Below, in pieces: positions 16,060 through 47,715 of a stretch of 64,000 nucleotides of DNA. The stretch is taken from contig CM059431.1 in the NCBI GenBank assembly GCA_030390025.1, positions 107,882,001 to 107,946,000 of the forward strand. The letters run 5' to 3'. Under the pieces are notes generated by a model that had not been told where the DNA came from, did not search any database, and saw only the letters and a list, made by a program, of their open reading frames with translations. Made by a program: the position numbers and the translations under genes. This DNA comes from Squalus acanthias (lineage: Eukaryota). Numbering within the stretch: the first letter of the stretch is position 1; each line of letters begins with the position of its first letter.

Positions 16060-16505
16060 TGCGCTGGAGCGCTTCAGCTATGAAGAGAGACTGGACAGGC
16101 TGGGGTTGTTTTCCTTAGAGCAGAGAAGGCTGAGGGGGACCTGATTGAGGTGTACAAAATTATGAGGGGCATAGATAGGGTAGATAGAAAGGAACTTTTC
16201 CCCTTAGTAAAGGCTCAATAACCAGGGGGCATAGTTTCAATGTAAGGGGCAGGAGGTTTACACGGGATTTGAGGAAAAACTTTTTCACCCAGAGGGTGGT
16301 TGGAATCTGGAACTCACTGCCTGAAAGGGTGGTAGAGGCAGGAACCCTCACAACATTCAAGAAGCAGTTAGATGAGCACTTGAAACGCCATAGCATACAA
16401 GGCTACGGACCAAGTGCTGGAAAATGGGATTAGAATAGATAGGGCTTGATGGCCGGCGCGGACACGATGGCCCGAAGGGCTTCTTTCTGTGCTGTATAAC
16501 TCTAT
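16060..16505 (+). mobile_element. CR1 LINE 3' fragment
   Basis: Degraded SYEERLDRLGLFSLEQRRLRG...FFTQRVVGIWNSLP; 3' hairpin and tail. Confidence 0.92.
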
Positions 16506-17394
16506 GGGGGAGAAATTCAGTATCGCCCCATTTGGGGCGCAATTGTCGGCCGGGCGCAAAGATTAGCGCCTGGTGCTAATTATCGCCACCGACTGCAAAC
16601 TTGGCTTTTATCGCCCCTGGAGGTGATTGGAGTGCTAAATCAGGCGCTTCACACCTGTCTTAAGGCGCAAAGGCCGAGGAGCGAGGCGCTACCTCAGAGC
16701 GCTGGCGAAGCTCATGTGATGTCAGTCAGCAATGGAACACACACACAATGGCATGGGCCAGTTCTTAAAGGGGATCGTTGATCTTGCTTTCCATCCACAT
16801 CCTGCTCATTGCAGCCTTGAATCTTGGCCTGGAGAGACCTGCACATCAAATCTGCTGGGAAGAACAATGGAGAGTGCCAGGGAAAGAGCTCAGAGTGCAG
16901 CCCCCACAGACTCTTCTAAATCGATACAAGGAAGGGCTAATCAAAATGAACCTGCAAAGTACTGCTCAGTACCCAAAATCCTTCACACAGCGTTGAATCT
17001 CTCCAGAAGTCTCTCTCTCTCTCTCTGACTGCGTGGTTCAAAAATGGCACCAACAATAAAAGGCAGGAAGCGGTCGCCTTTAAATAGCGCTCCCCCAGTC
17101 CCTTCATGACTGCAAAATGCTCCCTCAACCTGTCGTTGCTAGCGTCAGGCGGTAAGGCAGGGGGTGCCACTCAATATCCGCTCCGGGGCGATACCGGGGC
17201 ATTGCGCACTCGACTGACGTCACGATCTGCCTGCGCAGGAGATCGTGGCGGTAGTGTTTAGCGCCGCCGCAAAATGTCTAGTTAATTTCGCGAGCGGCGC
17301 AAACATCGCCGCGCCGGGGCGCTAGATGCTTTGCGCCCCATTAGCGCCCTCTTAAGGCACTAACGGGAGGTGCGACCAACTGAATTTTTCCCCC
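16506..17394 (+). mobile_element. Non-autonomous Harbinger derivative (889 bp)
   Basis: TIR GGGGGAGAAATTCAG / CTGAATTTTTCCCCC; TSD TAT; both arms homologous to the ends of 22243-26395. Confidence 0.93.
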
Positions 17395-17409
17395 TATGCA
17401 GATCTCTTC

Positions 17410-18180
17410 CTGTGTGTGCTGCCAGATCTTATTGCCTCAATGAAGACAAACTACAGGACCTTCTCAATGCTGCCAGACCGAAAGGCCTTTCCTCCCCAGT
17501 ACTGCCAGACTGCAGTGATCCCAGATCCCAGTGATCCTCCAGTGTTTCCCAGACCATGCCCATGCACCCCCATCCCCTCCACACCCCCACACCCTCAGAT
17601 AATGCTACAAGACCCCACATTCCTCCTTAATCCCATCACAGTGCCGCCCAATCCAGGGACTGTGCCCACGGGTGTCAAACCCCTTCCAGTGCTGTCAGAT
17701 CCCAGCCCCTCCAACCTGCAGTGCTGCCAGACCCAAGGAACTCCCCCCAGTAACTCAAACCCCACATTCTACCCTCAGTTCTGACAAACCTCACATTTTT
17801 CTTCCACCGTGCTCTGAACCACCAGGATCGTCCTCGCTGCCAGTTGTCTTGCGCTGTCACGGGGTCCTTCTCAGTGCGGCCAAAGCCCAACGTCATCACT
17901 TAGATGCCACCAAATCTCAGGTCTTCCTGTCCCCCTGCTGTAAAACTTCAGGTTCTCACGCAATGCAGCCAAACCCCTGGAGAGCTTCCTCAGTGCTACC
18001 AAATCCCTCGACCCTCCTGTGCTGTTAATTCTAGGATGTCCTCTCTGTGTGGCTAAAGCTCAGACCACCCACAGAGGAACTGACAAATTTCAAGACCCCC
18101 CATCCCAGTCGTACGAAAGCTGAGAAACACCGACCCCAACACCCAAAGCGCTGGACCTCCACAGTGCTATTAAACCTCAT
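17410..18180. repeat. Diverged C-rich tandem-like repeat (CAGTGCTGCCAGACCC motif)
   Basis: Motif recurs irregularly more than 10 times. Confidence 0.55.
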
Positions 18181-18285
18181 TATGTCCCTCAGTGCTGTAA
18201 ATCATCAGATACCTTCTGCAAACTTGCTACATCTTGCGTACATGTGTTAGGAATAAGAATTTTGTAATAAAATAGACAAAAGACT

Positions 18286-19178
18286 GCAGTCCTAGGCCCA
18301 ACCATCTTCAGCTGCTTCATCAATGACCTTCCCCCCATCATAAGGTCAGAAGTAGGAATGTTCGCATGCAGCAAGATCTGGACAACATGCAGGCTTTGGC
18401 TGATAAGTGGCAAGTAACATTCGTGCCAGACAAGTGCCAGGGAATGATTATCTCCAACAAGAGAAAGTCTAACCACCTCCCCATGACATTTAATGGCATC
18501 GTCATCGTTGAATCCCCCACCATCAATATCCTGGGGTCACCATTGACCAGAAACTTAACTGGATCAACCACGTAAATACTGAGGCTATAAGAGCAGGTCA
18601 GAGGCTGGGTGTTCTGTGGTGAGTGACTCACCTCCTGACTCCCCAAAGCCTTTCCACCATCTACAAGGCACAAGTCAGGAGTGTGATGGAATACTCTCCA
18701 CTTGCCTGGATGATTGCAGCTCCAACAACACTCAAGAATCTCGACACCATCCAGGACAAAGCAGCCCACTTGATTGGCACCCCATCCACCACGTTAAACA
18801 TTCACTCCCTCCACCACCAGCGCACCGTGTACCACCGACAAGAAATACTGCAGCAAACTCGTCAAGGCTTCTTTGACACCACCTCCCAAACCCGTGACCT
18901 CTACCAGCTAGAAGGCGCATGCGAATACCATCACCTCCAAGTTCCCCTCCAAGTCACACACCATCCTGACTTGGAAGTATATCGCTGTTCCTTCATCGTC
19001 GCTGGGTCAAAATCCTGGAACTCCCTCTCTAACAGCACTGTGGGAGTACCTTCAACACATGGACTGCAGCAGTTCAAGAAGGCGGCTCACCACCACCTTC
19101 TCAAGGGCAATAAGGGCCGGGCAATAAATGTTGGCCTTGCCAGCGACACCCACATCCCAGGAATGAATTAAAAAAAAG
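18286..19178 (+). mobile_element. Non-LTR retrotransposon (CR1/L2 group) 3' portion, degraded
   Basis: LGPTIFSCFINDL, QQDLDNMQALADKWQVTF, IYKAQVRSVMEYSPLAW, SKSWNSL; A-rich tail. Confidence 0.88.
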
Positions 19179-19759
19179 AAGATACACACATTACAGTCAG
19201 CTGAATTCAACCCTGCAGAGGGCTCACTTCTTTATCTCCCAACCTATAGCTAGGATTTTACACCATTCATGGGGGGAAATTTCAGTAGGTTAGTGCCTCC
19301 CGTTAGCACCTACAGATGGTGGTAACGGGGCGCTGATGCAGTAGCGCCGGGGCAAGGCAAATCCAGCGACATATGGCAAATCCAGTCCTCCCATTGCGCC
19401 GCCAGTATGAGGTATCGCCGGGGACTTCAACGTCAGGCAGATCATGACGTCAGTGAGTGTGCAATGCTCACTGGGCACCCGATCTGCCAAATTCATTATG
19501 GACATTTACCTTTGCGCCTGGACCAGACAGTGACAGGGAAAGAAGGCACACAGCTCCAGGGACGTTATTTAAAGGTATCCTCATTAATCACTCGCAGCTG
19601 TCAGGACAGGTTGGATCCAGTGGTTTACTTGTCAGTTTCAGCCAGTGGAGCAGTTTGTATGAGTAATTTCAGGTACTTTTTTATCAGCAGTGTTCTGGCA
19701 AGTGCAAAGTGCCTACATTTATTGTTCAAAGAGTCAAACTGCTACACTTGGCAACATTA

Positions 19760-20038
19760 ATGGGAGCTGTACTGGCATGTCACCTCGCCCTCCAGGATCT
19801 GTGATGGAGGGAGCATAGGCAGCCAGAAATACGGGAACATGTGCGCATAGAGATGAGGAGGGACATCAGGGCTCTCACCAGGAGGCCTTACCCTCCGAGG
19901 GTATTCCGACAGCACCTCTCCTACATTCAGTTAAGCAAGGAGCAGCGTATTAGACAGTTCCACATCACCAAGGTGGTGGTCACAGAAGTCTGCCACCTCC
20001 TCCAAACAGACCTCCAGCCTCACACCAGGATGACTTGA
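19760..20038 (+). pseudogene. Harbinger transposase N-terminal remnant
   Basis: RRPYPPRVFRQHLSYIQLSKEQ...VVTEVCHLLQTDLQP aligns with RRAYPPRVYREQLSYIHMSEEL...VVTEL at 25654-25780. Confidence 0.85.
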
Positions 20039-22600
20039 ACCCCAGATCCCTTTTGCTCACCACATGCCCATCATACCATCTCTGTGTCATGCCATATCAC
20101 AGCATCCTTCTGGATGCAAAGGTGAAATGAGAGCAACCACAATATATTGCAAACTCCATTAATAAATTCACAATCGTTCTAATAACTAATGACCCTTGTG
20201 CCTGCCATAGTTAAATAGCTGTCATTGTGTACAAGGCATGAGATGATAGTGTGAGTGTTGGTAGGTAGAGATTGTTGGTGTGTGAGTGCTGGGGGTGTGG
20301 TGCTTTGGGCAGTGTGTGAAGCTTGTGGTACAGATGGTGGTATGTAGCATTTGTTGAAGCATTCACTCACCCTGACCATCCGACTGAGGTGGATCTTCCA
20401 TGAGCACATAAGAACATAACATAAGAAATAGGAGCAGGAGTAGGCCAATTGGCCCCTCGAGCCTGCTCCGCCATTCAATAAGATCATGGCTGATCTGATC
20501 CTAACCGCCAATCTACTATCACAGAACCATCTCCTGAACCTAACAGAATTGGACACACAAAATAGGAGCAGGATCAGGCTACACGGCCCCTGGGCCCGCT
20601 ACGCTACCCACAGGGCCATGACCGATCCGAACCTAGACTCATGTCCAAATTCCTGCCCGCTCCCCGTAACCCTTAATTCCCTTTACTTCTAGGAAACTGT
20701 CTATTTCTGTTTTAAATTTATGTAATGATGTAGCTTCTACAGCTTTTTGGGGCAGCATATTCCATGGACCTACCACCCTCTGAGTGAAATAGTTCCTTCT
20801 CATCTCAGTTTTGAAAGAGCAGCCCCTTATTCTAAGACTATGCCCCCTAGTTCTAGTTTCACCCATCATCGGGAACATCCTCCCCGCATCCACCCGATCC
20901 AACCCCTTCACAATCTTATATGTTTCAATAAGATCGCCTCTCATTCTTCTGAACTCCATCGAGTAGAGTCCCAATCTACCCAACCTCTCCTCATATGTCC
21001 ATCCCCTCATCCCCGGGATTAACCGAGTGAACCTTCTTTGTACTGACTCGAGAGCAAGTATGTCTTTTCTTAAGTATGGACACCAAAACTGTATGCAGTA
21101 TTCCAGGTGCGGTCTCACCAATACCTTGTACAACTGAAGCAATACCTCCCTATTTTTATATTCTATCCCCTTAGCAATGAAAGCCAACATTCCATTGGCC
21201 TTCTTAATCACTTGTTGCACCTGCATACTAACCTTTTGAGTTTCGTGCACCAGGACCCCCAGATCCCTTTGTACTTCAGTACTTTCCAGTTTCTTGCCAT
21301 TTAGATAATAACTTGCTCTACTATTTTTCCTGCCAAAGTGCATAACCTCACACTTTCCAGTATTGTATTCCATCTGCCAAACCTCTGCCCACTTACTTAG
21401 CCTGTCTATGTCCCCTTGCAGATTTTTTATGTCCTCCTCACTCACTACTTTCCCTCCCATCTTAGTATCATCTGCAAACTTTGATATGTTACACTCGGTC
21501 CCCTCCTCCAAATCGTTAATATAGATTGTAAAGAGTTGGGGACCCAGCACTGACCCCTGCGGAACACCACTAGTTACTGATTGCCAGTCTGAGAATGAAC
21601 CATTTATCCCAACTCTCTGCCTTCTGTTAGATAGCCAATCCTCTATCCATGCCAGAATATTACCCCCAATCCCGTGGTTTTTTTATCTTAAGCAATAATC
21701 TTTTGTGTGGCACCTGTCAAATGCCTTTTGGAAGTCTAAATACACCACATCCACTGGTTCCCCTTTATCCACCCTGTGTGTTACTTCCTCAAAGAACTCC
21801 AGAAAATTTGTCAAACATGACTTCCCCTTCATAAAACCATGCTGACTTTGTCCTATTAAATTATGATTATCCAAATGTCCCGTTACTGTCTCCTTAATAA
21901 TGGACTCCAAAATTTTACCTACCACAGATGTTAGGCTAACCGGTCTATAGTTTCCAGCCTTCTGTCTACTGCCCTTTTTAAATAAGGGTGTTACATTAGC
22001 AGTTTTCCAGTCTGCCGGGATCTTTGCTGAGTCCAGGGAGTTTTGGAAAATTATTACCAATGCATCCACAATCCCTACCGTCACTTCCCTCAAGACCCTA
22101 GGATGTAAGCCATCAGGTCCAGGTGATTTATCCGCCTTGAGTCCCATTATTTTACCGAGTACCACTTCCTTAGTGATTTTGATCGTGTTTAGCTCCTCCC
22201 CCCCCTATAGCCCCCTGTTTGTACAGTGTTGGGATATTCTTAGGGGGAAAAATTAGGTCGCGCCCCGTTTGGGGCGCAAATATCGTCTGGACGCAAAAAT
22301 TAGCACCTGGCGCTAATTATCGCCACTGACTGGAAACTTCACTTTTACCGCCCCGGGAGGTGAGTGGAGCGCTAAATCAGGCGCTGCATACCTGTCTTAA
22401 GGCGCAAAGGCCGAGCAGTGAGGCGCTAACTCAGCGCGCGAGCGCAGCGCAGGTGCTGCCAGTTAGCGTGGGAACACAGACACACTGGCGCCGGCCAGTT
22501 CTTAAAGGGGGGGGGGCAACTTGCTCCCCAGCCACACCCTGCTCATTGCAGCCTTGAATCTCGGCCTGGAGAGACCTGTGAATCCATTTTGCAGCCAAGG

Positions 22601-24486
22601 ATGGAGAGGGTGAGAGAACGAGCTCAGCGCTTCACCGAGCGGGCCTTGGATGCTCTGGTTGGCGCGGAGGAGCGCAGAAGATCTATACTCTTCCCTGAGA
22701 GTGGCAGGAGGCCTTTGCCACGCGAGTACAGAAGAGTGTGGAGGGAGGTGGCTCAGAGCGTCTCCTCCAGGAGCATGGTGCCCAGGACCCATGTTCAATT
22801 CCGCAAAAAGTTCAACGACCTCACTCGGGTCGTCAGGGTGAGTGGCTTTTTCTCAATGCCTCTCCATCCCTCCATCTCAACCTCACTCTATGGCCAGAGG
22901 GTCTTAAAACCCCAATGCACAACACTCATCCAACACCTATGGCCCTTTCATGAAACACACACACACATTCCACACTTTGCATACAGTAAGGGCTATTCAC
23001 CTATGGGAGGCACATCAGGCAAGACCATGGCTGTATACAGTAAGGGCTATTCACCTATGGGAGGCACATCAGGCAAGACCATGGCTGTATATTTACTCAG
23101 ATGCTGTCCTTTTTCTTGCAGGCCAAGCTGGCACATAATAGGAGACAGCAGCAACGGACAGGTGGAGGGCGGCCTCAGCTGCAACCCCTCAGCGATCTTG
23201 AGGAGCGCGTCCACAGGATTGTGGCAAGCCGGGTGATCGGTCCCGTCGCCACTGGAGACGCCGACCCCGTTCTGGACAGCAATGGTAAGGTCATCACCTT
23301 TTTGTCCTCTGTCCTTCCACTTGTCCCTCACAACACCAGCCTTTGACAATTTCAATCCAACTTGCTAACTCGCTGCACTTATTCCTCCCTTACTGCCACC
23401 CTGTCCTCACGCTAAAGCCACTCTTGTACCTCCCTGCTTTCAGATGGTGATTCACCAGCTGAGGAGACGGGCCCTGAAGCTGCCAGTGGGAGTGAAGCTG
23501 CAGCCGAGGAGGAAGAGGAAGCCGGAGCATCAGTGCCACCCTCTCCTGAGGAAGCCCATGCCCACACTGGGAACACGCCTTCCCTGGAAGGGAGCAGGGG
23601 GGAAGGGTCTGATGAGGGTGAAGCTCCAGGACCCAGCGGGCTGCAGCAACACCATGGGGGTAGGGAAGAACGGGGGCCTTCTCCCCAGAGGGAGAGTATG
23701 CCAGCGACTCCTACTGCAATGGACGCAGAGGAGGAGCGGCTGATCGCAGAAATGAACACCCAGGCGGTGGGCATGCACACTGAGCTCATGGGTGCAGTGG
23801 GAAGGGTGCCCGAATGCATTGAGTCACTGGCAAGGAGTGTGGAGCACTTTGCTGTAGCATTGGTGGATGCCACACTAAAGCTTAGTGCTGCAATTCAGTC
23901 ACTGACTGCCGTGATCCCATCTCTGACTGCTCTCATGCAGACTCAGATTGAGGCCACGCGAGCACTGACTGCTGCCAACCTCGATGGTTCGTTCACATGT
24001 CCCCGGGGCTCTCACCGCGCCGCAGCAGGCCAGCAATCTGTGCTCCAGCAGATTGCTCCGGATGCTGAAGTGCTGCCCCGTGGGAGTGCCAGTGTGTCGG
24101 TCGAGCAGGGAGTTGCTGTCCTCTCTCACGATGACAGCATTCCTGCTGCCAACACTGTCACTTCTCCACTGCACTTGCCACCGCCTGTAGGACAGACTGC
24201 TGCCGCCCATGCAGAGTTGGTGCAGTCTGCAGCCGGGCCCTCCAGGCCCAGAACTGGTCGAGGCCGTCCTTCAGGGGCATCTGCAGTGTCAGGGTCTGAC
24301 AATCAGCAGCCTTCCACCAGCCTTGCTGCAGCCACTGAGGTCCCATTACGGAGAGCAGTAGGGTTAGAAGGGGGGAAGTGCGCAAGGGAAGGAGATCACC
24401 CTCGAAGGGCAAAAAGTAGCAGGTGTGACAAAATGCTGGTCATTTTTTTATTAAAGGCCGAGGTTCGTGGTCCAACTTTTGTCTAG
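22601..24486 (+). CDS. Harbinger Myb/SANT-like DNA-binding protein; exons 22601-22837, 23122-23284, 23444-24486 (480 aa spliced)
   Basis: RAQRFTERALDALV...W.EVA..V....RT..Q.RKKFNDL and RTGGG motifs; GTGAGT..TTGCAG and GTAAGG..TTTCAG introns keep the frame; AATAAA at ~24597; probable late frameshift near 24352. Confidence 0.85.
22981..23088. repeat. Perfect 54-bp tandem duplication in Myb intron 1
   Basis: ATACAGTAAGGGCTATTCACCTATGGGAGGCACATCAGGCAAGACCATGGCTGT x2. Confidence 0.95.
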
Positions 24487-24731
24487 TGTTTTGGACATTA
24501 TCTCCAGGTTGTGAGAACCAGTTATGTTAATGACTGTTTTTTTGTGTTTATTTCTATGAGTTTGTCATGAGGAAATGACACACACAGAGTTTGTAAAATA
24601 AATAAGTTTTTGTATTCAAAATATACATGTTTGGTGTTTGGAATCATTGGTGCCTTGGCCGGCTTAGGGGTTGCGTGCTGGGTTCATTGATGTTGTTAGC
24701 AATGGCAGAAGCCATTTCCACAGCAGGGGCC

Positions 24732-25884
24732 CTAGAAGCGGCTTGCTATCAGCCGTTGACGGACGGCCCTTGCAGTTTCACCATTGTGGGCCGCCCTCCC
24801 GCCTTGGTGCTGCTGATGATCATCCTCCTCGTCCTCTTCCTCCTCTTCCTCCTCCTCCTCTGGTGGTGCTCCAAGGCCTGGTGGCATTGGCTGGGTCCTG
24901 ACGATTGCCATGTTATGCAACATGCAGCACTACGAAGTTGGATACTCGCTCAGGCGAGTACTGCAGGGCTCCTCCAGAATGGTCGAGACAGCGGAACCGT
25001 TGCTTCAGCACGCCGATTGTGCGCTCAATGATGTTCCTGGTAGCTTGATGGCTCTCGTTGTACCTGCAGCTCAGCAGGGGTGTTGGGCGTACGGAGCGGT
25101 GTCATCAGCCAGGTGCTCAATGGATACCCCTTGTCCCCGAGAAGCCAACCAACTGGCTGATGCGGTGCCTCGAAAAGTTCTGCCACAGTAGTCTGGCGCA
25201 GGATGAAAGCATCGTGGCAGCTGCCAGGATAGTGGGCATTGACAGCGAGTATCAGCTGTCTGTGGTCACAGACCAACTGAACATTCAAGGAATGGAACCC
25301 CTTTCTGTTCTGGAAATCCTCGGCATTCTCATGTGGAGCACGCAAAGCCACATGCGTGCAGTCAATGGTGCCCTGCACCATGGGGAAGCCCGCTATCCTC
25401 GCAAAGCCCAGAGCGCGGTCACGCTGCTTGTCTCGGGTCATGGGGAAAGAGATGAACTCTCATTTTTAAAGAGGGCATTTGTGACTTGCCGGATGCAGCA
25501 ATGCACCGCGAACTGGGAGATATTGGCGAGGTCCCCAGCAGCAGCTTGAAATGAGCCAGTAGCATAGAAGATGAGAGCCACTGTGACCTTCACTGCCACC
25601 GACAGAGACGTCCTGGACCTCAGTTGAGGCTGCAGATCTGGCTGCAGCAGGTGTCAGAGCTCAGTGACCACCTCCTTGCTGAATCGCAGCCTTCGCAAAC
25701 ACAGCTCCTCAGACATATGAATGTAGGAGAGCTGTTCACGATATACCCTGGGAGGGTAAGCTCTCCTGTACATACGCCTGTTGGCCCTCCTCCGTCTGGC
25801 CATCATTGCCACTCTCTCTCTGCGTCTCTGTGTCCTCCGATTCAGCTGGAGCAGGACGACGCCCCCAATCAGTGCAGCCCCCAT
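24732..25884 (-). pseudogene. Harbinger (HARBI1-like) DDE transposase with a stop codon and frameshifts
   Basis: [75 protein letters not shown], acidic tail; TGA at 25654. Confidence 0.95.
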
Positions 25885-27777
25885 AGTCTCTTTGCAAGCA
25901 AAGTTATGAAGGACAGCAACCAAAGTACTAGCGAAGTTAGGATCAGTAGGCAAAACTACCTCACAAAGCGTTGACTCAATGCAGAAGTCTCTCTTTCTCT
26001 CTCTCCGAATCTCTCTCTCTCTCTCAGAACGAGTGGTGCAAAAATGTCAACCACAGAAAAAGACAGGAAGAGGCCCCCTTTAAATAGCGCCCCCCCCAGC
26101 CCCACAGCGATTGATAGCGTTCCAGTCTTCCGGTCGTTGGATGCGCCAGGCGGTAAGGCAGGGGGCGCCACTCAATTTCCGCTCCGGGGCGCCACAAGGG
26201 CGTTGCACCATGGAATGACGTCACAATCTGCATGCGCAGGTGGTCGCAGCGGTAAAGTTTAGCGCCGCCGCACAATGTCTAGTTAAGTTCCCGAGCAGCG
26301 CAAACAGCGCTGCGCCCGGGAGCTAGCGGCTTTGCGCCCCATTAGCGCCCTCTTAAGGCGCTAACGGGAGGCGCAACCAACTGAATTTTTCCCCCTTTGT
26401 GTCCTCTACTGTAAAGACTGATACAAAATATTCATTCAGTGTATTTGCCATCTCCATATTTCCCACCATTAATTTCCCGGTCTCATCCTCTAAGGGACCA
26501 ACATTTACTTTAGCCACCCTTTTTCTTTTTATATAACTATAAAAACTCTTACTATCTGTTTTTATATGTTTTGCTAATTTACTTTCATAATCTATCTTCC
26601 CTTTCTTAATCAATCTTTTTGTTATTTTTTGCTGTCTTTTAAAGTTTTCCCAATCCTCTATCCTCCCACTAGATTTTGCTACCTTATAAGCCCTTGTTTT
26701 TAGTCGAATATTATCCTTAATTTCTTTACTTAGCCATGGATGACTGTCTTTTCTTTTACACCCTTTTCTTCTCAGTGGAATATATATTTTTTAGAAGTTG
26801 TAAAATAACTCCTTAAATGTACACCACTGATCATGTATCGTCTTACCCTTTAATCTATTTTCCCAATCCACTCTACTCAATTCTGCTCGCATACCTTCAT
26901 TATCTCCTTTATTCAAGCTTAGCACGCTTGTTTGAGATCCAACCTTCTCACCCTCTAATTGAATATGGAATTCAACCATGTTATGGTCACTCATTCCAAG
27001 GGGATCCTTTACTAAGACATTTTTAATTAATCCTGTCTCATTACACAGGACCAGATCTAAGGTTGCTTGCCCCCTGGTCGGTTCAGTTACATACTGCTCA
27101 AGAAACCCATCCCTAATACACTCAATGAACAAGGCAGCCCTGCCCAATTTGATTTGTCCAATTAATATGATAGTTAAAATCCCCCATAATTAAAGATGTT
27201 CCCTTATTACAAACCTCAACTATTTCCTGATTGATACTCCGTCCAACAGAGTTGCAACTGTTCGGAGGCCTATAGACTACGCCCACTAATGTTTTTTTCC
27301 CCTTATTATTCCTTATCTCCACCCAAACTGTTTCATTATCCTGATCTTTTGACCCAATATCATTTCTCTGTATTACAGTGATTCCTTCCTTTATTAACAT
27401 AGCAACCCCACCTCCCCTTCCTTCCTGCCTGTCCTTCCTGATCGTTAAATAACCTGGTATGTTTAATTCCCAGGCATTGTCACCCTGCAGCCATGTTTCT
27501 GTAATGGCCACAAGATCATACCCATATGTAGTTATTTGTGCCATTAACTCATCTATTTTGTTACGAATGCTACGTGCATTCAGATAGAGAACTTTCAAAT
27601 ATGTTTTGTGACACTTAGTTCCTGCTTTTGCCCTTTTTATTACTTTACCTTTTACTCCATACCTTCTGCCCCTTCCTGACACACTCTGGTTTTTCATTTC
27701 CCCACTGCTACCTAAGTCTATGACCTTCTCTGTTGTCATTTTTATTATTTGCTCTCTAGGAACCTCCCCCCCACTAG

Positions 27778-28731
27778 TTAGTTTAAAGCCCTCTCTACAG
27801 CCCTAGTTATATGATCCGCCAGGACTCTAGTCCCAGCACTGGCCAAGTGAAGCCCGTCCCAACGGAACAGCTCCCTCCTGCCCCAGTACTGGTGCCAGTG
27901 TCCCAGGAAGCAAAACCCATTTCTCCCACAACAGTCTTTGAGCCACTCATTTAACTCTCTAATTTTATTTGTCCTAGCCAAATTCGCTCGTGGCTCAGGT
28001 AATAATCCAGAGATTAATACCCTTGAGGTTCTGTTTTTTAATTTGACCCCTAGCTGCTCATACTCCTTTAACAGAACCTGCTTCCTTGTCCTATCTACGT
28101 CGTTTGTACCAACATGGACCACGACAACTGGATCCACCCCCTCCCACTGCAAGTTTCTTTCCAGCCCAGAGGAGATGTCCTTAACCCTGGCACCGGGCAG
28201 GCAACACAGCCTACGGGACTCTTGCTCTTGGCTGCAGAGAACTCTATCTATCCCCCTAATAATACTATCCCCTACCACTACAACATTTCTATTTACTCCC
28301 CCCTCTTGAATGGCCCCCCGTTCCACGGTGCTATGGCCAGGTTGCTCATCCTCCCTGCAGTCCCTGCTCCTGTCCCCACAGGGAGTAAGAACCTCGAACC
28401 TGTTGGACAAGAGCAAGGGCTGCGGCTCCTCCAACACTACCTCCTGGATCCCCGTACCTGCCTCACTCGTAGTCACACTGTCCTGTCCCTGACCATGGGC
28501 TACATCTGAATTAATTAACTTCATAGGTGTGACCACCTCCTGAAACACAAAGTCCAGGTACTTCTCCCCCACCCTGATGTGTCGCAGTGTCTGATGCTCA
28601 GACTCCAGCTCATCAATACGGAGCTGGAGTTCCTGTAGCAGCAGACACTTGTCACAGATGTAATCACCGTGAGCCTCAGTGGGGTCCACCGGCTCCCACA
28701 TCTCACAACAGTAACACATCACCTGCTCCAT
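27778..28731 (-). CDS. CR1 ORF1p: N-terminal Cys-rich finger, coiled coil, SGNH/GDSL esterase domain (317 aa, open)
   Basis: CxxC...CxxC, LQELQLRIDELESE, VVGDSII, PGARVKD, VHVGTND, DGLHL motifs. Confidence 0.92.
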   Translation of the reverse strand: MEQVMCYCCEMWEPVDPTEAHGDYICDKCLLLQELQLRIDELESEHQTLRHIRVGEKYLDFVFQEVVTPMKLINSDVAHGQGQDSVTTSEAGTGIQEVVLEEPQPLLLSNRFEVLTPCGDRSRDCREDEQPGHSTVERGAIQEGGVNRNVVVVGDSIIRGIDRVLCSQEQESRRLCCLPGARVKDISSGLERNLQWEGVDPVVVVHVGTNDVDRTRKQVLLKEYEQLGVKLKNRTSRVLISGLLPEPRANLARTNKIRELNEWLKDCCGRNGFCFLGHWHQYWGRRELFRWDGLHLASAGTRVLADHITRAVERALN

Positions 28732-29764
28732 TCTATGTAATTAATTTTTAAAAATTTATTGTTAGTTATGGACACTCTGCCCGATTATAGATGCTAGTAT
28801 CGCCTCTAATTAATTGGATTTAAATTAAATCAATCCCTCTAAATTACACCAGTTAAATGGTTTACCAACAGTCACTCTGCACCAGAAAGGCCTTATTAAC
28901 TATAACCCACAGAGCTTAAGTTTAAAAAGAGAGAAATACTCACCAACCAATTACTTACCTGCTTTCTGGTGACGTCACACCTCGATTATTTTTACCTCTC
29001 TCCCTCCCTCCGAGTTCAGAGACTGGTCCCGCCTTACCTGGTCTCTGGAGCCTTTTAAACCCTTTGCCGCCGCCTCGCCTCACACAGGTCCGCCGCTGCA
29101 CCAGGAAGCTGACAAAGATGGAAAAAGGAAGGCACACCTTCCTCCCCGAACTCCCTCACTCACCAAACTCGCAGCTTAGCACTCTATTCCAAATCTGCAC
29201 TCCGTGACAAACTGCACTCTAGTCTCACCTGCTTCAGTCCTCCGGCTCCTTCTCCTTGTTGTGCTTCTCCTTGCTGAGGCAGCTGCACAGCCAGCAATGC
29301 TGAAAATGAGGTGCTCCAGTATCAATGAACCTCCCCTTTAAGTACTGAGAAAAGCCAGTGGCAATAATGAGTTGAGAGTGGACTTCACACAATATTGGTC
29401 CACCCTTTGAGTGTAACGCCACTGAGCTAGGTCTTTAAGACTTGATTTAGTGCCCCAATCATTTCTTTGTGCAGTGAGACTGAATCTTGCCTGCAGTCTA
29501 AAGCATTAGCGCTGGCGCTAATTCTTAAACTGTTCCGAAGATACCGCCCATTCCTGGGCTATCATGAATTTCTAGCCCATACTGTTTTGAGCTGCACTAC
29601 TTCATAGGCACTTCCATAACCCCTTTACCCACTTTCCGTACCAGTCTCAATCTTATGGTCTTGTGTTGTACAGAAAAACATTGGTATTTTAGTGTCAGCA
29701 TGAAACATAAGGAACCATGCCCTGAGTCTCCAGTTTAGAGCAAATCATTTGCCAGCTGGCCCTT

Positions 29765-34723: not shown

Positions 34724-34734
34724 TAAAAGAAAAA

Positions 34735-36565
34735 AAGAAAGACTTGCATTTATGTAGCACCTTTCACGACCTCAGGAGGTCCCACAGCGCTTTACAAACA
34801 ATGACATACTTTTGAAGTGTAGTCAATGATCTAATGTAGGAAACGGGCCAGCCAATTTGCGCACACCAAGCTCTCACACACAGCAATGTGATAATGACCA
34901 GATAATCTCTTTTAGTGATGTTGGCTGAGGGATAAATATTCACTGTGATTATCTACAGGTACGTTTTTGCGGCCTTCTGCGCATGCGCACGTTATCTCGG
35001 AGCCCAACAGTTGTGGCCTGCTGTAGGACACGCATTCCTCAGCTCTGTAAGAAGGTCACTGGATCCGTTGGTGGCCGGGGGGGTTGGGAAGAGAGAGAAT
35101 CGAAAGGAGAGAGCGGGGGAATCAGAGGGGAAAGAGAGAGAGAAGAGGGGAAAGAGAGAGAATCGGAGGGGGAGAGAGAAAGGGAATTGGAGGGGAGAGA
35201 GAGGATGAGGGGAGAGAGGGGGAATCAGAGGGGAAAGAGAGAGAGGATTGAAGGGGGGAGAGAGAGAGGATCGAAGGGGAAAGAAAGAGAGGATCAAAGG
35301 GGAGAGAGAGAGAGGGGATCGGAGGGGGGAGAGAGAGGGAATCGGAGGGGGGGAGAGAGAGAGGGGATCGGAGGGGAGAGAGAGAGGAAATTGGAGAGGG
35401 GAGAGAGAGGGGGGATCGAAGGGGGAGAGAGAGGGAATCGGAGGGGGAAAGAGAGGGAATCGGAGGGAGAGAGAGGAGGGGAGAGAGAGAGAAAGAGGAG
35501 GAGAGAGAGGAGGAGGAAAGAGAGAGAGGAGGGGGAGAGAGGATCGGAGGGGAGGGGAAAGAAGGTCAGGAACTCGGGAGGGGGGGGGCATAAAGAACAC
35601 AGAGAGCATAATGGGGATGGGGGAAGAATGTGAGCCAGGTCCAAAGGGGGGGATGAGAGTGAGAACATAATCCAGATAGTAAGACAGATCACGTTCCAAC
35701 ACCACCCTCTTTACACCCACACCATGTTCTCCCTCTCCTCCCCCAGACCTGGTTAATATCTCAGAAAGCTCGGTGCATGTGTGGCAAGTGACTGGACAAA
35801 ATCCACAAGTCATGACACTGTCACTATTCACTTCATACCCAATAAACCTGTTAACAATCCGTGACCCACACACAATGCCCCATCTATGGGGGGTGGGGGG
35901 AGGGAAGGTCAGGAACTTGTTGGGGGAAGAAGGTCATGAACCTGGGGGGGGGGAGGAACTTGAGTGGGGCGAGAAGGTCAGGAACCCAGGGGGGTGGGGG
36001 GGAAGGTCAGGAACTTGGGCAGGGGGAGAAGGTCAGGAACTTGGTGGGGGGAGGTCAGAAACTTGTTGGAGAGGGAAAAGGTCAGAAACTCAGGGGTGTG
36101 AGGAAGGTTAGGAACTTGTTGGGGGTAAGGAACTTGTTTGGGGTGTAGGAGAAGGTCTTAACCCGCGAGGGTGAGCCCTGTCTGTTCTATGTGAGCTCTG
36201 TTCTATCTGGAACCTGACAGTCAGAATGGCTCGAATTACACTTTGCAAAGTAATTGATTACTTAGGCAGGCAGGATCTAATTACACATTCCAGATAAACT
36301 GCTGGATGTGTCTTGTTCTCCAAGGGGACCAATCAGAAATCAGGTGTTGCCTTCAAGGTGACCAATCAGAGATCTGGTGTTGGAAATAAACATGACAATA
36401 AATATTGGCCACAACACCGGGGATAACTCCTCTGCTCTTCTTCGAAATAGTGCCTTGGGATCTTTCGTGTCCACCTGAGGGAGCAGACGGGGCCTCAGTT
36501 TAACATCTCATCCGAAAGAGGGCCACTCCGACAGTGCAGCACTCCCTCAGTACTGCACTGGAGTT
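34735..36565 (-). mobile_element. DeuSINE split into 34735-34940 and 36398-36565
   Basis: SINE sequence stops at GGGATAAATATT and resumes at ATAAATATTGGCCACAACACC. Confidence 0.85.
34941..36397. mobile_element. Unclassified 1457-bp insertion with purine-rich internal repeats
   Basis: 9-bp duplication ATAAATATT at both junctions; (GAGAGAGGGAATCGGAGG)n at 35090-35560; (GAAGGTCAGGAACTTG)n at 35890-36140. Confidence 0.7.
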
Positions 36566-37773: not shown

Positions 37774-37789
37774 TTGAAACCTAGAAAAA

Positions 37790-40929: not shown

Positions 40930-41530
40930 ATGCTCGAATGAAGTGAAAATAAACTTTCATTTCATGGAGGCATGAGCAGAGTCTGTAGGCAAGTGACAGA
41001 ATGGTACAGCACCCTATCTGATTGTTGAGAAAGTGGTTGTGCTACGACACGATTTGGGTGCAGGAAGGAATGCTCTGTTTCCACTCCACCGCATCCTCAC
41101 CGGAGCATAGCAGTGTAGTTTGCCTGTCAGGTTCAGCAGTCTGTACAGCACATTACAGCTGTCTACCATGGTCTGCACTCTTGGGAACCCCACCACTTAA
41201 GAAAATGTCTCTGCCTATTGAGCTGATAACTTCTTTCCACAGGATAAAGCTGCAAACTTGTCCCTTTCAGACGAGCCCTCTGATGCATTTGCACAGAGTT
41301 GACCGATTTGGCAAATGCCACCAGCACTGTCTTGGAAGGATCCAGAGACATGCAGAGAATACTATACTAATGACTAATGGCCTTCATGCCCATGGGAAGC
41401 GATCTCCCTGTGGCATGTGATATTAGATGTCTGAGCTTGCTTCGAGAAATGACATTGCTATGCATTGTGAAGCGGAGGCAGCAAAGACATGTCTTCTCTG
41501 ACTTACTCAGGGAAGACGATCTTGACCAGT
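40930..41530 (-). pseudogene. Ancient Harbinger transposase fossil
   Basis: Colinear remnants across frames: CLRF, SLPMGMK, SGSFQDSAGGICQIGQ, GFPRVQTMVDSCNV. Confidence 0.6.
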
Positions 41531-41572
41531 AAATATGAGTATTGGGGTAAGGATGTGTGAGAGTGAGGATGT

Positions 41573-42115: not shown

Positions 42116-42252
42116 ACAATATATGAAGAATAGTTGCACCTGCAAGAAATGCTATCTGTCCTCAAAATGTAGGACCACCAATTGAAACCCTAAATTAATT
42201 CCATCCTGTCTACTATATTATAACCATATATTATGCCGGTAAGATGTATTAA

Positions 42253-42525: not shown

Positions 42526-42659
42526 TTCATAAGTGAAATTGCAGTTGGGAGCAAAACAGTTGTAAGAAATAGAAATGGAAATAAAGGGTGAATTTGAAAA
42601 TTCAGCTGGCAGCTGTGTTTAGGGAGGAGGTGGTCAGAGAATTAGTTTGAAAGTGAATT

Positions 42660-42912
42660 ACATAGAATTTACAGCACAGAAATAGACCATTCAGCCAGCA
42701 GGTCTATGCTCCATATAAGCCTCCTCCCACCTTACTTCATCTCACCCGATCAACATATCTTTCTATTCCTTTCTCCCTCATATACTTATCTAGCATTCCC
42801 TTAAATGCATCTATGCTATTCGCCTCAACTACTCCATGTGGCAGCGAGTTCCACATTCTCATCACTTTCTGAGTTAAAGAAGTTTCTCCTGAATTCTTTA
42901 ATGGATTTATTA
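42660..42912 (-). mobile_element. CR1 3' fragment
   Basis: Reverse complement similar to 41860-42115. Confidence 0.85.
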
Positions 42913-44032
42913 GTTAATCCTTAAAACTCTAGCAAAGCAACAAAAAAAAAGCAAACTTAAACAACAACTAAAAATAATGCGCCAATCAAATGCAGATAAG
43001 CAAACAAAATGTAACCTTCCAACCAACAATGAATTAGTGAAAGTCACCTTTAAGAAGCCTGCTTCTACCTGTCAGGCTAGTTACAGAGTGCTATATCTGT
43101 TTCAAATGGAACCTAATTTATCAAATATTGCTCACTTATTCTCTGGAAAGTCAATTTTAATTGAAGCAATCTCCAAGATTTAAGCAGAACATGTTGAACT
43201 GAGAAAAAAAATGAAAAGACATAAAACAGGAGCTCTAGCAATACAAAATGTCATAGTAGCCTAGGGAATAACAAGGCTTTCATATGAAGAGTATCTTGAC
43301 AGTCAATAATTCAAGCTAAATTTAAATATGGATTTAGCTTTGAAGCTCCACAAACTAGAATTTCATGCCTGAAGTGGTACAGGATGAAGGAAAGTGTGTC
43401 AGGGTGATCATCTGGTACCAGATTGCGACTGCTCACAACCAGCATTATGCTGCTAACCATATCTGCAGGCCTTGACATACTTACCTAGCAATTATGATTG
43501 GGAACTGGCTCCATGAGCTCCAGATCACTATAGGGTAGTGTGCAGATCTATGCAGCCTGCAGCCATACTGCACCATATGAACAACACTGCCAGTGGCAAT
43601 GAACGTCATGTGTTACCTCACCTGTTTGACTCTGCCTCCTCCAGGCTAGGTGACTAGGTCAGCTCGGCTACTGAATAGCAACAACAGTAGAACATGATAT
43701 TGCCACCTTGCCGCATTTAGCAAAGTAGGGGAGGGTATTAATTGTGCATATGTGGCCATCCTGCAGCCTATTACGTGTGTCAGTAAGTAACCATATATTA
43801 TGCAGGTAAAGTGGATGATAATAATTTTATATATGAAACCCTTTGAAGTTGTGAGTGTGCCAAGGGTGTCAGTTGTATTCGCTTGGCTCATTTGACAGCA
43901 CTCTTGCCTCTGGGGGTGAGAAAGTCGTTCAAGACCCACTCCAGGACTTGAATACATATTCTGGACTGACACAGCTGAGTAGTATTGAGAGCATGAAGCA
44001 CGTCAGAGGAGCTGACCTCTGCATGAGATATT

Positions 44033-44761
44033 GGCCCAAAAATTCGGCCCTTCCTGGGTGAGTACACTGTGTACTCACCCGTATTGCTTCCCGAAGTGCC
44101 GGTTTCCTGCATGCACTGCGCATGCGCGGGAAACCGGAACTTCCGGTATGGTGAAGGGGGCAGTTCCTAGGTGAACCACGTGCGCGGTAGAGGCTGCGCG
44201 CACACAGCAAACTTAGATTTTTTTTCAGGTTTCTACGCGAGGGTAAGTATTGAAGATTCTACGCTAATAAAAAGGAGGCTTAAGACCCCTTTTGAACAAG
44301 GTAAGTGGTTAATTAAGTATAATTTTAATTTTTTTTCAACAGGTTTATCTTTTTTAGATACTTTAAAGTATTTTAATTTTTTCAAAAATTTTAATTTTTG
44401 TTTAAAGTGGTTAATTTATTTAACTATAGTTATTTTATAAATGTGATGGTTTTTTAAAGATTTATTTTAAGTTTAGCTGTTCTTTTGGGGCCGATTTCAA
44501 TTCACAGATTTGACAGGTCTTCCTGTCAAATCTATGAATGAAAGATGGTCTGCTGCCATTGGCTCTCCATGGCCCATGTGATCCCAGGGGTCGCATCGCA
44601 CTAACTGCGCCCCTGGAACACGCAAGCACTGCACGCCGGCTCTTGGGAGAGGCCCAGGACCCGAAGTTCCCGTGGGCCCAAAACATAATGGCAGGCGCGG
44701 TAGGTAAGAGCGCGCGCGATCCTTACCCCCGCGGCAAGCCGGACACGCAAATTTCTGGGCC
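44033..44761 (+). mobile_element. Harbinger-type MITE, GGCCCAGAAATTC family (729 bp)
   Basis: TIR GGCCCAAAAATT / AATTTCTGGGCC; TSD ATT; empty site GAGATATTAAAACGG at ~42460-42474. Confidence 0.93.
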
Positions 44762-45814
44762 ATTAAAACGGAGACCCTAACTGCATATTCAGGTGGATGT
44801 AAAGGATAACATGACACCAGAAGAGGAGTGAGTTTTGACTCCCTATGATCTTGGTACTATGACCCTCTTATCTGAGTATGTTTCTTAATATGTCCCCATG
44901 ACAACTAGCCTTTCTGTTAAATACCATAACCATTGGGTCTATCCTCAACCTCCACAGGCATTTTCTTTTGAAAAGCCTTCAGAACATCATAATGTTAGAC
45001 CTTGTTTTAGTTTTATAATTGTCAAGCAAATTTATTCAACAGAAGATAAGCACATATAAAACAGTAAGATAATGCATACATATATTTATAGCAGCTATTA
45101 TATTAATCATCTCCATGAACAAATAAAAGATTGCGATCTATGTACTAAGCAACTAATTAACTTTTGCATAAACCGTTATTATTTTTATGGTCGTTTTTTC
45201 TAACTGTGGGAGTTTTCTAATCTAATCCAACTTTTCTCTGGATCCAGCTGATTCAACGCAGCTCAACTCCACTCATCTCAGTTTTTAGATGAGGTTCAGC
45301 TCCTTAAATACTCTTGAAAACAGATGCCGGGGCTTCCTGGAATTGAAAAACAGTCAGCCAGATTCAAAAGTACCTGCCAGTCATACACATAAATGAGCAA
45401 ACCACACAGTACGTATTTGTTTGAATGTGGTTTGGCTAACCCCATCCCCCTTCAAGCTTGGGAGACAATAAATGAAACTTGGTGACATTAATCAATATAA
45501 TTCTGACTGCAACTGGCTTTGAAACTCCTCGGACTTTGTAACTCAGTTAGGATCATCTGCCAAGCGAAAGCAAGCCAAGAAGACTTCATTTGTGCCACAC
45601 TGGGATCTTGCTGTGTGCAAATTTGCTACTGGCTTTGCCTACTTAACATTTCATAGATTTCAAAAGTAATTAATTGGATATGAAACAATTTGGGACATCC
45701 TGAGAATGGAGCAAATTCTATAGAAATAAAAATGATTTCTTTCTTGTATGTTTTGGTTTGGATATTTGCCCGGCTGGTGTATGGTGATTTATGTGAAGCA
45801 ACAAATGAGCAGAA

Positions 45815-45940
45815 AGCGTAAGCTCGAGGAACAGCACCTCATCTTTCGATTAGGCACTTTACAGCCTTCTGGACTCAACATCGACTTCAACAATTTCAGA
45901 TCATAACCTCTGCCCCTATCTTTTTTTTCCATTTTTTTGT
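45815..45940 (+). mobile_element. Penelope-like element, GIY-YIG endonuclease C-terminal fragment
   Basis: Translates as RKLEEQHLIFRLGTLQPSGLNIDFNNFRS*. Confidence 0.85.
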
Positions 45941-46609
45941 TCCTCTCGCACTTCGGGCGGTTGAGCAGGGACCGTGTAATTTTGGGCCGAACTCCAACAT
46001 TTTGTGAGGTAGCTTCAAAAGCAAAAATAGTGTATGGGATACAAAAGTGGCAACCTTCAGCATTTAATAGAAAATCTCTGAGGTTTTTAGTCCAATCTGT
46101 CCACTTGAGTTTTCTTGCAGTTTCTACGGGATTTCAAATCTCCTGCCCAACTCAAACAGGGACTGGCTAAATACAAAAGGAATGTCAAAGTTTGACCACC
46201 GTGCACCTAATTTCTTTCCGCTTTTGTTCAATTTCTCTTTAATATTAATTTCCAAAGTTTTCAATTAAGTTATATTTTCTTGTAATAAAAATGTATTTAA
46301 AAAGTCAACAGGAAATGATTAGACAAAGAATGATGTAGTCCCACCTCCCAGTGAAAGATTTTGACCACTCAAGTGCATGGGATATTTTATGGGCGTACAG
46401 CGGAACCACATTTATTGCTCCCATAATATCTAGACTACAGAGCCTGATATTTCCCGAGGTATCTGCTATTCATTTCTGCTCAATCAACCACTGTGGGGTT
46501 CATAACTTAGTTGGCGTGGAGAGGCTTGCTGCAATGGAGGAGCTCAACCTGAGCTGGGCATATGTAGAGGAATTGGATTGCCCATCATTCAGGATTGGCA
46601 GGAGTCATA

Positions 46610-47502
46610 GGGGGAAAAATTCAGTTGGTTGCGCCTCCCGTTAGCGCCTTAAGAGGGCGCTAATGGGGCGCAAAGCAGCTAGCGCCCGGGCGCGGCGAAG
46701 TTTGCGCCGCTCGCGAAATTAACTAGACATTTTGCGGCGGCGCTAAACACTACCGCCACGATCTCCTGCGCCGGCCGATCATGACGTCACTCGAGTGCGC
46801 AACGCCCCGGTATCGCCCCGGAGCGGATATTGAGTGGCGCCCCCTGCCTTACCGCCTGACGCTAGCAACGACAGGTTGAGGGGAGCGTTCTGCAGTCATG
46901 AAGGGAAAGGGGGAGCGCTATTTAAAGGTGACCGCTTCCTGCCTTTTATTGTTGGTGCCATTTTTGAACTACGCATTCTGAGAGAGAGAGGGAGAGACTT
47001 CTGGAGACATTTAACGTTGTGTGAAGGAGTTTTGGGTACTGAGCAGCACTTTGCAGGTTCATTTTGATTTGCCATTCCTTGTATCGAGTTAGCAGAGACT
47101 GTGGGGGCTGCACTCTGAGCTCTTTGCCTGATACTCTCCATTGTTCTTTCCAGCACATTTGATGTGCAGGTCTCTCCAGGCCGAGATTCAAGGCTGCAAT
47201 GAGCAGGATGTGGATGGAAAGCAAGATTAACCATCCCCTTTAAGAACTGGCCCGTGCCATTGTGTGTGTGTTCCATTGCTGACAGACATTACATGAGCTT
47301 CGCCAGCGCTCTGAGGTAGCGCCTCGCTCCTCGGCCTTTGCGCCTTAAGACAGGTGTGAAGCACCTGATTTAGCGCTGCAATCACCTCCAGGGGCGATAA
47401 AAGTCAAGTTTGCAGTCGGTGGCGATAATTAGCGCCAGGCGCTAATTTTTGCGCACGGACGATATTTGCGCCCCAAACGGGGCGCGACTGAATTTTTCCC
47501 CC
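46610..47502 (-). mobile_element. Non-autonomous Harbinger derivative (893 bp), sister of 16506-17394
   Basis: TIR GGGGGAAAAATTCAG / CTGAATTTTTCCCCC; TSD ATA; colinear reverse complement of the 16506 copy. Confidence 0.94.
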
Positions 47503-47715
47503 ATAGAGTCATACGGCACAGAAGGAGGCCATTCGGCCCATCGAGTCCGTGCCGGCTCTCTGTAGAGCAATCCAGTCAGTCCCACTCCGCCGCTCTATCC
47601 CCGTAGCCCTGCAAGTTTATTTCCCTCAAGTCCTCTTGAAAACATTGAGTGTCTCCGCTTCCATCACTTCCGTCGGCAGTGAGTTCCAGGTCCTCACCAC
47701 TCACTGCGTAAAAAC
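47503..47715 (-). mobile_element. CR1 3' fragment whose (GAGTCATA)n tail is split by the MITE
   Basis: GAGTCATA on both sides of the MITE; GAAGGAGGCCATTCGGCCC hairpin. Confidence 0.88.

Follow-up and report, generated by a model that had tools for sequence, protein, structure and literature searches.

Extended target preference is described as a trait of the PIF/Harbinger (PHIS) superfamily (PMC2836001). The zebrafish elements Harbinger3_DR and Harbinger3N_DR insert at the target AAACACCWGGTCTTT (PMC3016246, PMC2836001), with half-sites given as AAACAC-CWG-GTCTTT (PMC3016246), and the description leaves open which protein recognises the flanks and which one determines the core (PMC2836001). 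The NuwaII group of the same superfamily targets C-TNA-G, written C|TNA|G, and the species list given for it names no sharks (PMC4482050). For plant PIF, Ping/Pong and Tourist-like MITEs such as mPing, a 9-bp extended target is reported (PMC2836001).

A shark PIF/Harbinger family compared with described systems

The stretch of shark DNA analysed here, 64,000 nucleotides long (the window), contains a new family that belongs to a known class of element and whose target preference is also of a type already described. It has a DDE_Tnp_4/HARBI1-like transposase (in a broken gene), a Myb/SANT second gene, short G-initial terminal inverted repeats (TIRs), a target site duplication (TSD) of 3 bp and a target preference reaching beyond the TSD. 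Searches with the TIR patterns returned 0 matches in metagenome contigs and viral contigs. The full-length relative, copy F, and the CR1 that hosts it are composed as follows:

22243-26395, plus strand: copy F, decayed two-gene Harbinger of 4153 bp, flanked by TTA and TTT; empty site GATATTC[TTW]GTGTCCT in CR1 ORF2
22601-22837, plus strand: exon 1 of the Myb/SANT-like gene; Myb_DNA-bind_5 (PF13873), E 9.5e-10, 38.7 bits against a cut-off of 21.7
24738-25884, minus strand: Harbinger transposase gene, broken; DDE_Tnp_4 (PF13359), E 1.5e-24; 68% to shark protein P0001
20408-22242, minus strand: 3' part of the CR1 hosting F; RT domain RVT_1, E 4e-10 and 1e-12; TTCTTATG-type tail at ~20408-20430
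26396-28740, minus strand: 5' part of that CR1; Exo_endo_phos, E 7e-10, endonuclease region; upstream ORF

At the Myb gene, tblastn with protein P0012 gives matches at 22613-22837 and 23116-23223, and further exons would lie from ~23120 onward. Along the transposase gene the reading frame changes three times (tblastn frames -2, -1, -2, -3), and there is one in-frame stop. Among 234 candidates, 83 are homologues at E <= 1e-20, the best being shark "putative nuclease HARBI1" at 60-69%. ORF2 of the host CR1 encodes endonuclease (Exo_endo_phos) and RT (RVT_1), and the upstream limit of this CR1 probably lies at ~29200. The TSD of F is imperfect, its left copy being TTA and its right copy TTT (one mismatch). 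The initial annotation was right to place F inside CR1 ORF2. Its site ATTC[TTA]GTG can also be read with TTT, as found in the right flank and at the matching position of a CR1 homologue at 56 kb.

The two shorter copies, A and B, are ~890-bp Harbinger MITEs that are 93.5% identical to each other:

16506-17394, plus strand: copy A, non-autonomous (MITE-like), 889 bp, with TIRs and TSD; 81-82% to both ends of F; Myb-side end at 16506
16503-16505, plus strand: left TSD of A, TAT
17395-17397, plus strand: right TSD of A, TAT, then GCAGATC with no further tail unit
46610-47502, minus strand: copy B, non-autonomous, 893 bp; Myb-side end at 47502
46602-46609, minus strand: TSD of B, TAT (46609-46607), and the tail letters GACTC continuing past B
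47505-47503, minus strand: TSD of B on its other side, TAT

The TIRs of A and B are 14-16 bp long (GGGGGARAAATTCAGT), and TAT stands at each side of both copies. The ends of F are 81-83% identical to A and B and, judged by sequence, F represents a different subfamily.

The family resembles Harbinger3_DR in its two-gene Myb plus DDE organisation, its non-autonomous derivatives, its 3-bp TSD and the presence of both half-sites, AAACAC and AAAGAC, in the shark flank consensus; it differs from the published element in that the shark TSDs are TAT, TAT and TTW (consensus TAW/TTA) rather than CWG, and in that the shark sites are loose. Like NuwaII as described in PMC4482050, it has C before and G after a T-initial 3-bp TSD (3/3 shark sites), TIRs starting with GG and two ORFs, with 4.15 kb for F against a NuwaII average of ~4.7 kb. 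However, the TAT of A and B is not TNA on either strand; TNA fits the left TSD copy of F and some consensus rows (TAA, TTA). With the plant elements, as far as PMC2836001 describes them, it shares a preference that reaches beyond an AT-rich TSD of 3 bp and MITEs mobilised in trans, but its flanks are longer (15-bp) and of vertebrate type, and its MITE is 890 bp.

Independent insertions into two CR1 tails

Copies A and B each abut a CR1 fragment:

16064-16505, plus strand: CR1 truncated at its 5' end, host of A; identity with the 29.8-kb CR1 79.8%; hairpin at ~16455-16493; ACTCTAT tail unit
47503-47714, minus strand: short CR1 truncated at its 5' end, host of B; identity with the 52.7-kb CR1 81%, with the host of A 71%; hairpin; TATGACTC unit

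Both hosts are short 3' fragments assigned to CR1 by similarity, and both carry an octamer microsatellite with tail units ACTCTATG after a CR1-type 3' hairpin, which lies 12 bases before the insertion (z -2.5 at A, -3.5 at B). The CR1 tail repeat has been described as ATTCTRTG (PMC8665684). Reconstruction of the empty sites gave ATAACTC[TAT]GCAGATC for A and ATGACTC[TAT]GACTCCT for B, the same as the sites ACTC[TAT]GCA and ACTC[TAT]GAC read initially. Both copies do lie in the terminal repeat tail and have their Myb side facing the body of the CR1, as had been claimed. Taken as a target rule, this orientation is uninformative at 2/2 (p = 0.5). A GACT duplication at the host of B was considered and dropped: that CR1 reaches 47714, with no clear TSD.

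Whereas the MITEs share 93.5% identity, their host CR1s share 71% (149/209), and no long match was found between the far flanks of the two loci. Thus, A and B are independent insertions, each into the ACTCTATG tail of a separate CR1, and not, as the initial annotation had guarded against, one insertion duplicated with its flank. A single insertion copied with its flank, by segmental duplication or by retrotransposition of a composite CR1-MITE, would explain why the inverted match between A and B extends ~54 bp into the CR1 side, but that shared stretch is only 85% identical, and the divergence of the hosts together with the unrelated far flanks makes such an origin negligibly probable, and the divergence of the hosts by itself refutes it.

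At B, the tail unit GACTC runs on beyond the element and therefore the MITE came second, in agreement with the order first proposed. At A, the insertion lies in the last tail unit, and what may be an ATGC duplication of 4 bp flanking the CR1 suggests that the CR1 likewise came first. LINEs can prime on microhomology, and the reverse order at A would have the CR1 primed on TATG, i.e. the TSD of a pre-existing MITE plus its first TIR base. The tail does break off precisely where the element starts, and TAT+G fills out a tail unit. Against this order stand the tail unit running past the element at B and the junctions at A, where ...CCCAATGCG stands at the end of the CR1 5' junction and TATGCAG follows directly on the MITE; these fit an ATGC duplication made by the CR1, with the T of TAT taken from the tail (4 bp, only suggestive). 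We consider the reverse order highly improbable.

Flanks of other copies and the target motif

Flanks of other copies were derived from contigs clipped at element ends in four shark-type runs, X1, X2, X15 and X19 (of 20 listed), X1 being covered to ~55%. The loose-end rows (24 of 1850 listed) comprised nine at element termini, which were used, four element-free tails, and 11 internal ones, which were set aside. By construction, the consensus rows omit copies whose flank matches that of B, i.e. tail-oriented copies. Coded organisms G and H yield mostly a related subfamily, and the B-type end in coded organism A is the X1 row alone (68 contigs, subfamilies possibly mixed).

Adjoining the element, the consensus is AAAACAC-TAW and AAAGAC-TWW (nine rows among the 24 of 1850 listed). 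The non-Myb end reads ...AAAACACTAT in 68 contigs of X1, 319 of X15 (plus 174 with TAA) and 205 of X19, with agreement of 0.38-0.41; the Myb end in X15 (107 contigs) reads AAAAGAT-TTA. In all four runs, sister subfamily flanks are AAAGAC/AAAGTC/AAAAAC-WWW. All 9/9 rows match the better of the two Harbinger3_DR half-sites at 5-6 of 6 positions, against 1-3 of 6 for forward CR1 tail units. An extended target preference had been predicted, and a consensus beyond the 3-bp TSD is indeed present in 4/4 runs; the motif proposed for the family, AYTC-TWW-G, is not what these termini carry. The further suggestion that CR1 tails match the preference holds in part, in that the octamer spells the core A-N-N-C-[TAT]-G.

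In the window, three further relatives are present:

19271-29578, minus strand: older related Harbinger, split by the host CR1 of F; Myb-side flank AAAACAG-TAT; outside CR1 tails
63109-63756, plus strand: related MITE with GGGGGAAAA TIR; site AAAGAC[CAA]AGTCT; outside CR1 tails
10782-11449: related element; outside CR1 tails

The older element retains a transposase N-terminus at 19760-20030, and its Myb exon/intron and left end are 70-72% identical to F (score 56 against a shuffled maximum of 33). The initial annotation spoke of three available sites, A, B and F; all three exist, and with these relatives 2/6 related elements in the window lie in CR1 tails. Left flanks are AAAGAC at 63109 and AAACAG at the older element, and the site of F fits GTGT on the right. 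Individual sites are loose, matching 6-7 of 12 flank positions.

We therefore favour, as the probable explanation, a motif-driven hot spot plus some luck, in an abundant cartilaginous-fish PIF/Harbinger family that does not recognise CR1 as such. The family would consist of a two-gene element, encoding a Myb-like DNA-binding protein and a DDE transposase, and ~890-bp non-autonomous copies, inserting by cut-and-paste into a loose, near-palindromic 15-bp target, AAASAC-[TWW]-GTSTTT, of Harbinger3_DR type with an AT-rich core. The array (A[C/T]TCTATG)n would put A at -4, C at -1 and G at +1 around TAT, and T at +4 where a further unit follows; the ACTC variant would also supply C at -3, making it the best tail target. 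Since this 8-bp repeat automatically places matching bases around TAT, tails would be above-average targets, presumably without a fixed orientation or a safe-haven role shaped by selection, unlike the oriented safe-haven target first proposed. Such a model accounts for Harbinger recurrence inside short-period repeats without homing. It would also make a 15-bp target of Harbinger3_DR type common to an abundant shark family, with the duplicated core changed from CWG to TWW, so that CWG and TWW families lend themselves to asking which protein is responsible for flank recognition and which for the choice of core.

Elements that target repeats, such as Tx1L in Tx1D and Dada, concentrate most copies at a single site within the host repeat. 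True oriented homing of this kind, along the lines of the initial annotation, in which the target had evolved to the CR1 tail (AYTC-TWW-G) and most copies lay in it, Myb end facing the body of the CR1, would likewise place one mobile element inside another repeat. The sites of A and B, both ACTC[TAT]G and in the same orientation, and the ATTC left flank of F agree with it. However, hundreds of other termini in three coded organisms give AAASAC and not AYTC, in a count that leaves tail-oriented copies aside, so that the consensus of other copies, unlike in Tx1L and Dada, is not the host repeat; 15/17 tails in the window are empty; 4/6 relatives lie elsewhere than in tails; and F sits in ORF2 of an element class making up 22% of the window, its right flank fitting the general-motif GTGT. 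Summed contig depth also falls 152- to 959-fold across the non-Myb end of B, a weak point as depth is not copy number. We regard homing by the family as very unlikely, and a narrower form, in which the young ~890-bp subfamily drifted to ACTC-TAT-G and has a large share of its copies in CR1 tails in one orientation, as only slightly less so. Homing would make this a DNA transposon specialised on a LINE replication signal, the end of the dominant LINE, and each insertion would in addition inactivate the 3' recognition signal in the CR1 copy struck; no case of such specialisation was found in the open-access literature searched.

Frequency of tail insertions

CR1 tails make up 0.83% of the window. 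The octamer happens to spell A-N-N-C-[TAT]-G and tails are therefore enriched, ~4-13-fold, among candidate sites (15/316 C-TWW-G and 8/109 A-N-N-C-TWW-G sites). Under a naive null, in which tails hold 118/7613 TWW/WWA sites, the probability that at least 2 of 3 insertions fall in tails is 0.0007. Under motif nulls it is 0.0065 (C-TWW-G), 0.015 (A-N-N-C-TWW-G) and 0.03-0.07 (strictest cores), and under four weighted AAASAC models 0.0007-0.004. The motif thus absorbs the coincidence only partly (P ~0.001-0.07). A and B match 6/12 flank positions, within the top 12% of sites; with flat scoring, tails average 3.7 and other sites 3.6.

What the motif nulls leave over could reflect over-representation of the A/B subfamily in CR1 tails beyond the prediction of a short motif, as a minority of copies. 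Possible causes are DNA shape or the hairpin-forming sequence beside the tail, young CR1 ends being accessible, or a higher survival of insertions inside CR1. Both copies of the subfamily (2/2) are in tails, and copies in the tail orientation escape the contig data. On the other side, the locus was chosen post hoc, and at P of 0.0065-0.03 per window such a pair would turn up in roughly 1-4 of the genome's 147 noted windows; the four further relatives lie outside tails. On balance such an extra bias is unlikely, though less so than homing.

A depth-based ceiling for tail-oriented copies is 0.6-3.6% with a further ACTC unit and 3-18% if only G matches, and it is weak, as overlap between contigs raises the depth within the element to an unknown extent. 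Among the matches listed for the four runs, no contig piece spans the whole element and no joint skips it; CR1-tail contigs without the element at the junction of B number 250-406 per run. Among the six tail AYTC-TWW-G sites of the window, four are empty, and the occupied ones are 2/2 of the ACTC sites against 0/4 of the others (Fisher p 0.067).

Two separate insertions in CR1 tails

Copies A and B are non-autonomous Harbinger MITEs of ~890 bp that lie in CR1 tails, i.e. the octamer microsatellite following the CR1 3' hairpin; F is a decayed two-gene relative.
16506-17394 (+): copy A, TIRs GGGGGARAAATTCAGT, TAT flanking each end
46610-47502 (-): copy B, TIRs GGGGGARAAATTCAGT, TAT flanking each end
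22243-26395: F, inside CR1 ORF2, with a Myb_DNA-bind_5 exon and a DDE_Tnp_4 gene

The reconstructed empty sites, ATAACTC[TAT]GCAGATC for A and ATGACTC[TAT]GACTCCT for B, are each 12 bases past the CR1 hairpin; the initial annotation had placed both MITEs in CR1 tails at ACTC[TAT]G. A and B are 93.5% identical, while the CR1s carrying them are 71% alike (149/209) and of different subfamilies, each being ~80% identical to another CR1 within the window; the far flanks are unrelated. Thus, A and B are two independent insertion events, and a single insertion later duplicated with its flank, which the annotation had itself named as a refutation, can hardly be entertained. At B, the tail is present on both sides and the MITE therefore inserted second, as had been proposed. 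At A, a 4-bp hint makes it likely that the MITE also followed the CR1; arrival of the CR1 after the MITE is very improbable.

The two genes of F are tail to tail, and its transposase gene, the closest homologues of which are in sharks and rays, is broken by three frame changes and one stop. Its ends are 81-83% identical to those of A and B. The location of F in CR1 ORF2 stands, but the ATTC[TTA]GTG site read there is one of two readings: the target site duplication (TSD) is imperfect (TTA/TTT) and a homologous CR1 has TTT. A 48-bp direct duplication (22970-23090) lies in the first intron of the Myb-like gene.

The family is PIF/Harbinger on every feature tested. In Harbinger elements (PMC2836001), the transposase is recruited by a Myb protein bound to the ends of the element and makes a 3-bp staggered cut within an extended target, which measures 9 bp in plants but 15 bp in vertebrates. 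Copies A and B would have been mobilised in trans by an autonomous partner nearer to them than F.

Flank consensus in public sequencing runs

The element is present in twenty public runs. Four runs (coded organisms A, A, G and H) were mapped to B plus 36-bp flanks at 88% likeness, yielding 28,978, 41,931, 55,582 and 49,631 matching contigs, which indicates a very abundant family. A contig was counted as loose only where its match to B ends, and 24 of 1850 loose-end rows were covered; tail copies in the orientation of A and B match B's flank for some bases and fall outside these, while tail insertions in the opposite orientation fall within them and are not the plurality.

At the non-Myb end (the Myb end being the one beside the Myb-like gene), contigs leaving the reference exactly there gave the consensus ...AAAACACTAT in runs X1 (68 contigs), X15 (319) and X19 (205), with a further 174 ending TAA in X15; no such row was seen for X2 among the 24 of 1850 listed. 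The Myb end gave AAAAGAT-TTA in X15 (107 contigs), with no Myb-end row for X1, X2 or X19 among the same rows. Sister subfamily flanks were AAAGTC-AAT (91), AAAGAC-TAT (121), AAAAAC-TAA (248) and AAAGAC-TTA (150). Agreement among true flank rows is 0.38-0.41 over 30 letters, the flanks being AT-rich and varied apart from a conserved motif next to the element.

The target of zebrafish Harbinger3_DR is AAACACCWGGTCTTT (PMC3016246). One or other of its half-sites is matched at 5-6 of 6 positions in all 9 rows compared among those listed, and forward CR1 tail units at only 1-3 of 6. For the sister-subfamily row of X1, a reversed ACTC tail does just as well (5 of 6). The family motif is thus AAASAC-[TWW]-GTSTTT and not AYTC-TWW-G as annotated, although a consensus beyond the TSD, whose absence would have counted against any target preference, does exist. 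The flanks are like those of Harbinger3_DR, but its CWG core does not recur here. The target also resembles that of NuwaII (C|TNA|G; PMC4482050), but the TAT of A and B is not TNA, a comparison judged by target sequence. The element belongs to a known kind of transposon and the family itself is apparently new: the open-access literature covered yielded neither an earlier description of this shark family nor a report of Harbinger targeting of CR1 tails.

Each run also contains 250-406 CR1-tail contigs that have a further ATTCTATG-like unit and are empty of the element at B's junction. Across the non-Myb end, depth, which is not a copy count, falls 152- to 959-fold, arguing against a majority of copies in tails; true oriented homing to CR1 tails, as originally proposed from A and B, is accordingly improbable. 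Organisms G and H hold mostly a related subfamily, B's alleles being rare; in both, a related subfamily is without about 217 bp of B's middle (joints 47073-47083 to 47297-47300; main joint, 14 contigs in each organism).

Target motif, chance and the CR1 tails

The window is repeat-rich vertebrate DNA, probably from a cartilaginous fish to judge by the shark and ray homologues of the transposase. With four transposons removed first, CR1-like sequence makes up 12,588/57,405 bp (22%), and 17 CR1 3' ends were located by the hairpin motif, counting neither the opposite-strand match to a hairpin already scored nor two internal hairpins (9658 and 20588). Tails agree with the hairpin plus ATTCTRTG pattern described in PMC8665684.

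In an A[C/T]TCTATG repeat, each TAT is surrounded by the inner letters of the target palindrome: A at -4, C at -1, G at +1 and T at +4. The ACTC variant adds C at -3. Tails occupy 476/57,405 bp (0.83%) and hold 15/316 C-TWW-G, 8/109 A-N-N-C-TWW-G and 3/29 A-N-N-C-TWW-G-N-N-T sites, an enrichment of candidate cores of about 6- to 13-fold (3.8-fold for C-WWW-G). Both ACTC tails are occupied and none of four ATTC tails (Fisher p 0.067). We therefore consider that the insertions of A and B probably result from the target motif alone; against this, both fit the full flank at a modest 6/12 positions, and the probability of at least 2 of 3 elements in tails, a pattern chosen post hoc, remains as low as 0.0007-0.004 under weighted models, 0.0065-0.015 with short cores and 0.03-0.07 with the strictest; core values rise to 0.03-0.26 when six elements are counted. 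At 0.0065-0.03, such a pair is roughly expected in about 1-4 of the 147 annotated windows of the genome. A minority excess of copies in tails is unlikely, if less so than homing. Three further relatives are present:
19271-29578: older Harbinger, split by F's host CR1, Myb-side flank AAAACAG-TAT
63109-63756: related MITE, site AAAGAC[CAA]AGTCT
10782-11449: related element, degenerate
None of the three is in a CR1 tail; within the window, 2/6 related elements are in tails and 2/17 tails are occupied.

Other repeats of the window

The older Harbinger, ~70% identical to F, forms a three-tier nest: a CR1 of near-full length (20408 to about 29200) interrupts it in exon 1 of the Myb gene, and F in turn splits that CR1. 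A weak tblastn match to Harbinger transposases at 41140-41358 (-) (E 3e-6 to 4e-4) is probably another very old fragment. A second MITE family (1515-2195, 44030-44762 and 53431-54201; about 700-770 bp, 71-81% alike) ends in TIRs of the GGCCCAGAAATT type, and two of its copies show what look like ATT duplications; the first copy is in a SINE-like repeat, and 0/3 are in a CR1 tail.

At least four tail units coexist among the 17 CR1 3' ends: ATTCTATG, ACTCTATG, TTTCTATG/TTTCTAAG and TTCTTATG. Two ends (9543-9841 and 20408-20703) are 97% identical, and in each another hairpin-like end (at 9658 and 20588) lies internally, ~130 bp before the true tail; they would represent a composite or extended 3' end of a young CR1 subfamily. 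An open 320-codon frame at 27778-28740 (-), upstream of the CR1 endonuclease region, has a Cys-rich start and what we take to be a GDSL-like esterase motif, and is probably CR1 ORF1. Positions 1-1400 and 35080-36110 hold, respectively, a C-rich minisatellite with a 12-bp unit and a degenerate tandem array rich in GA.
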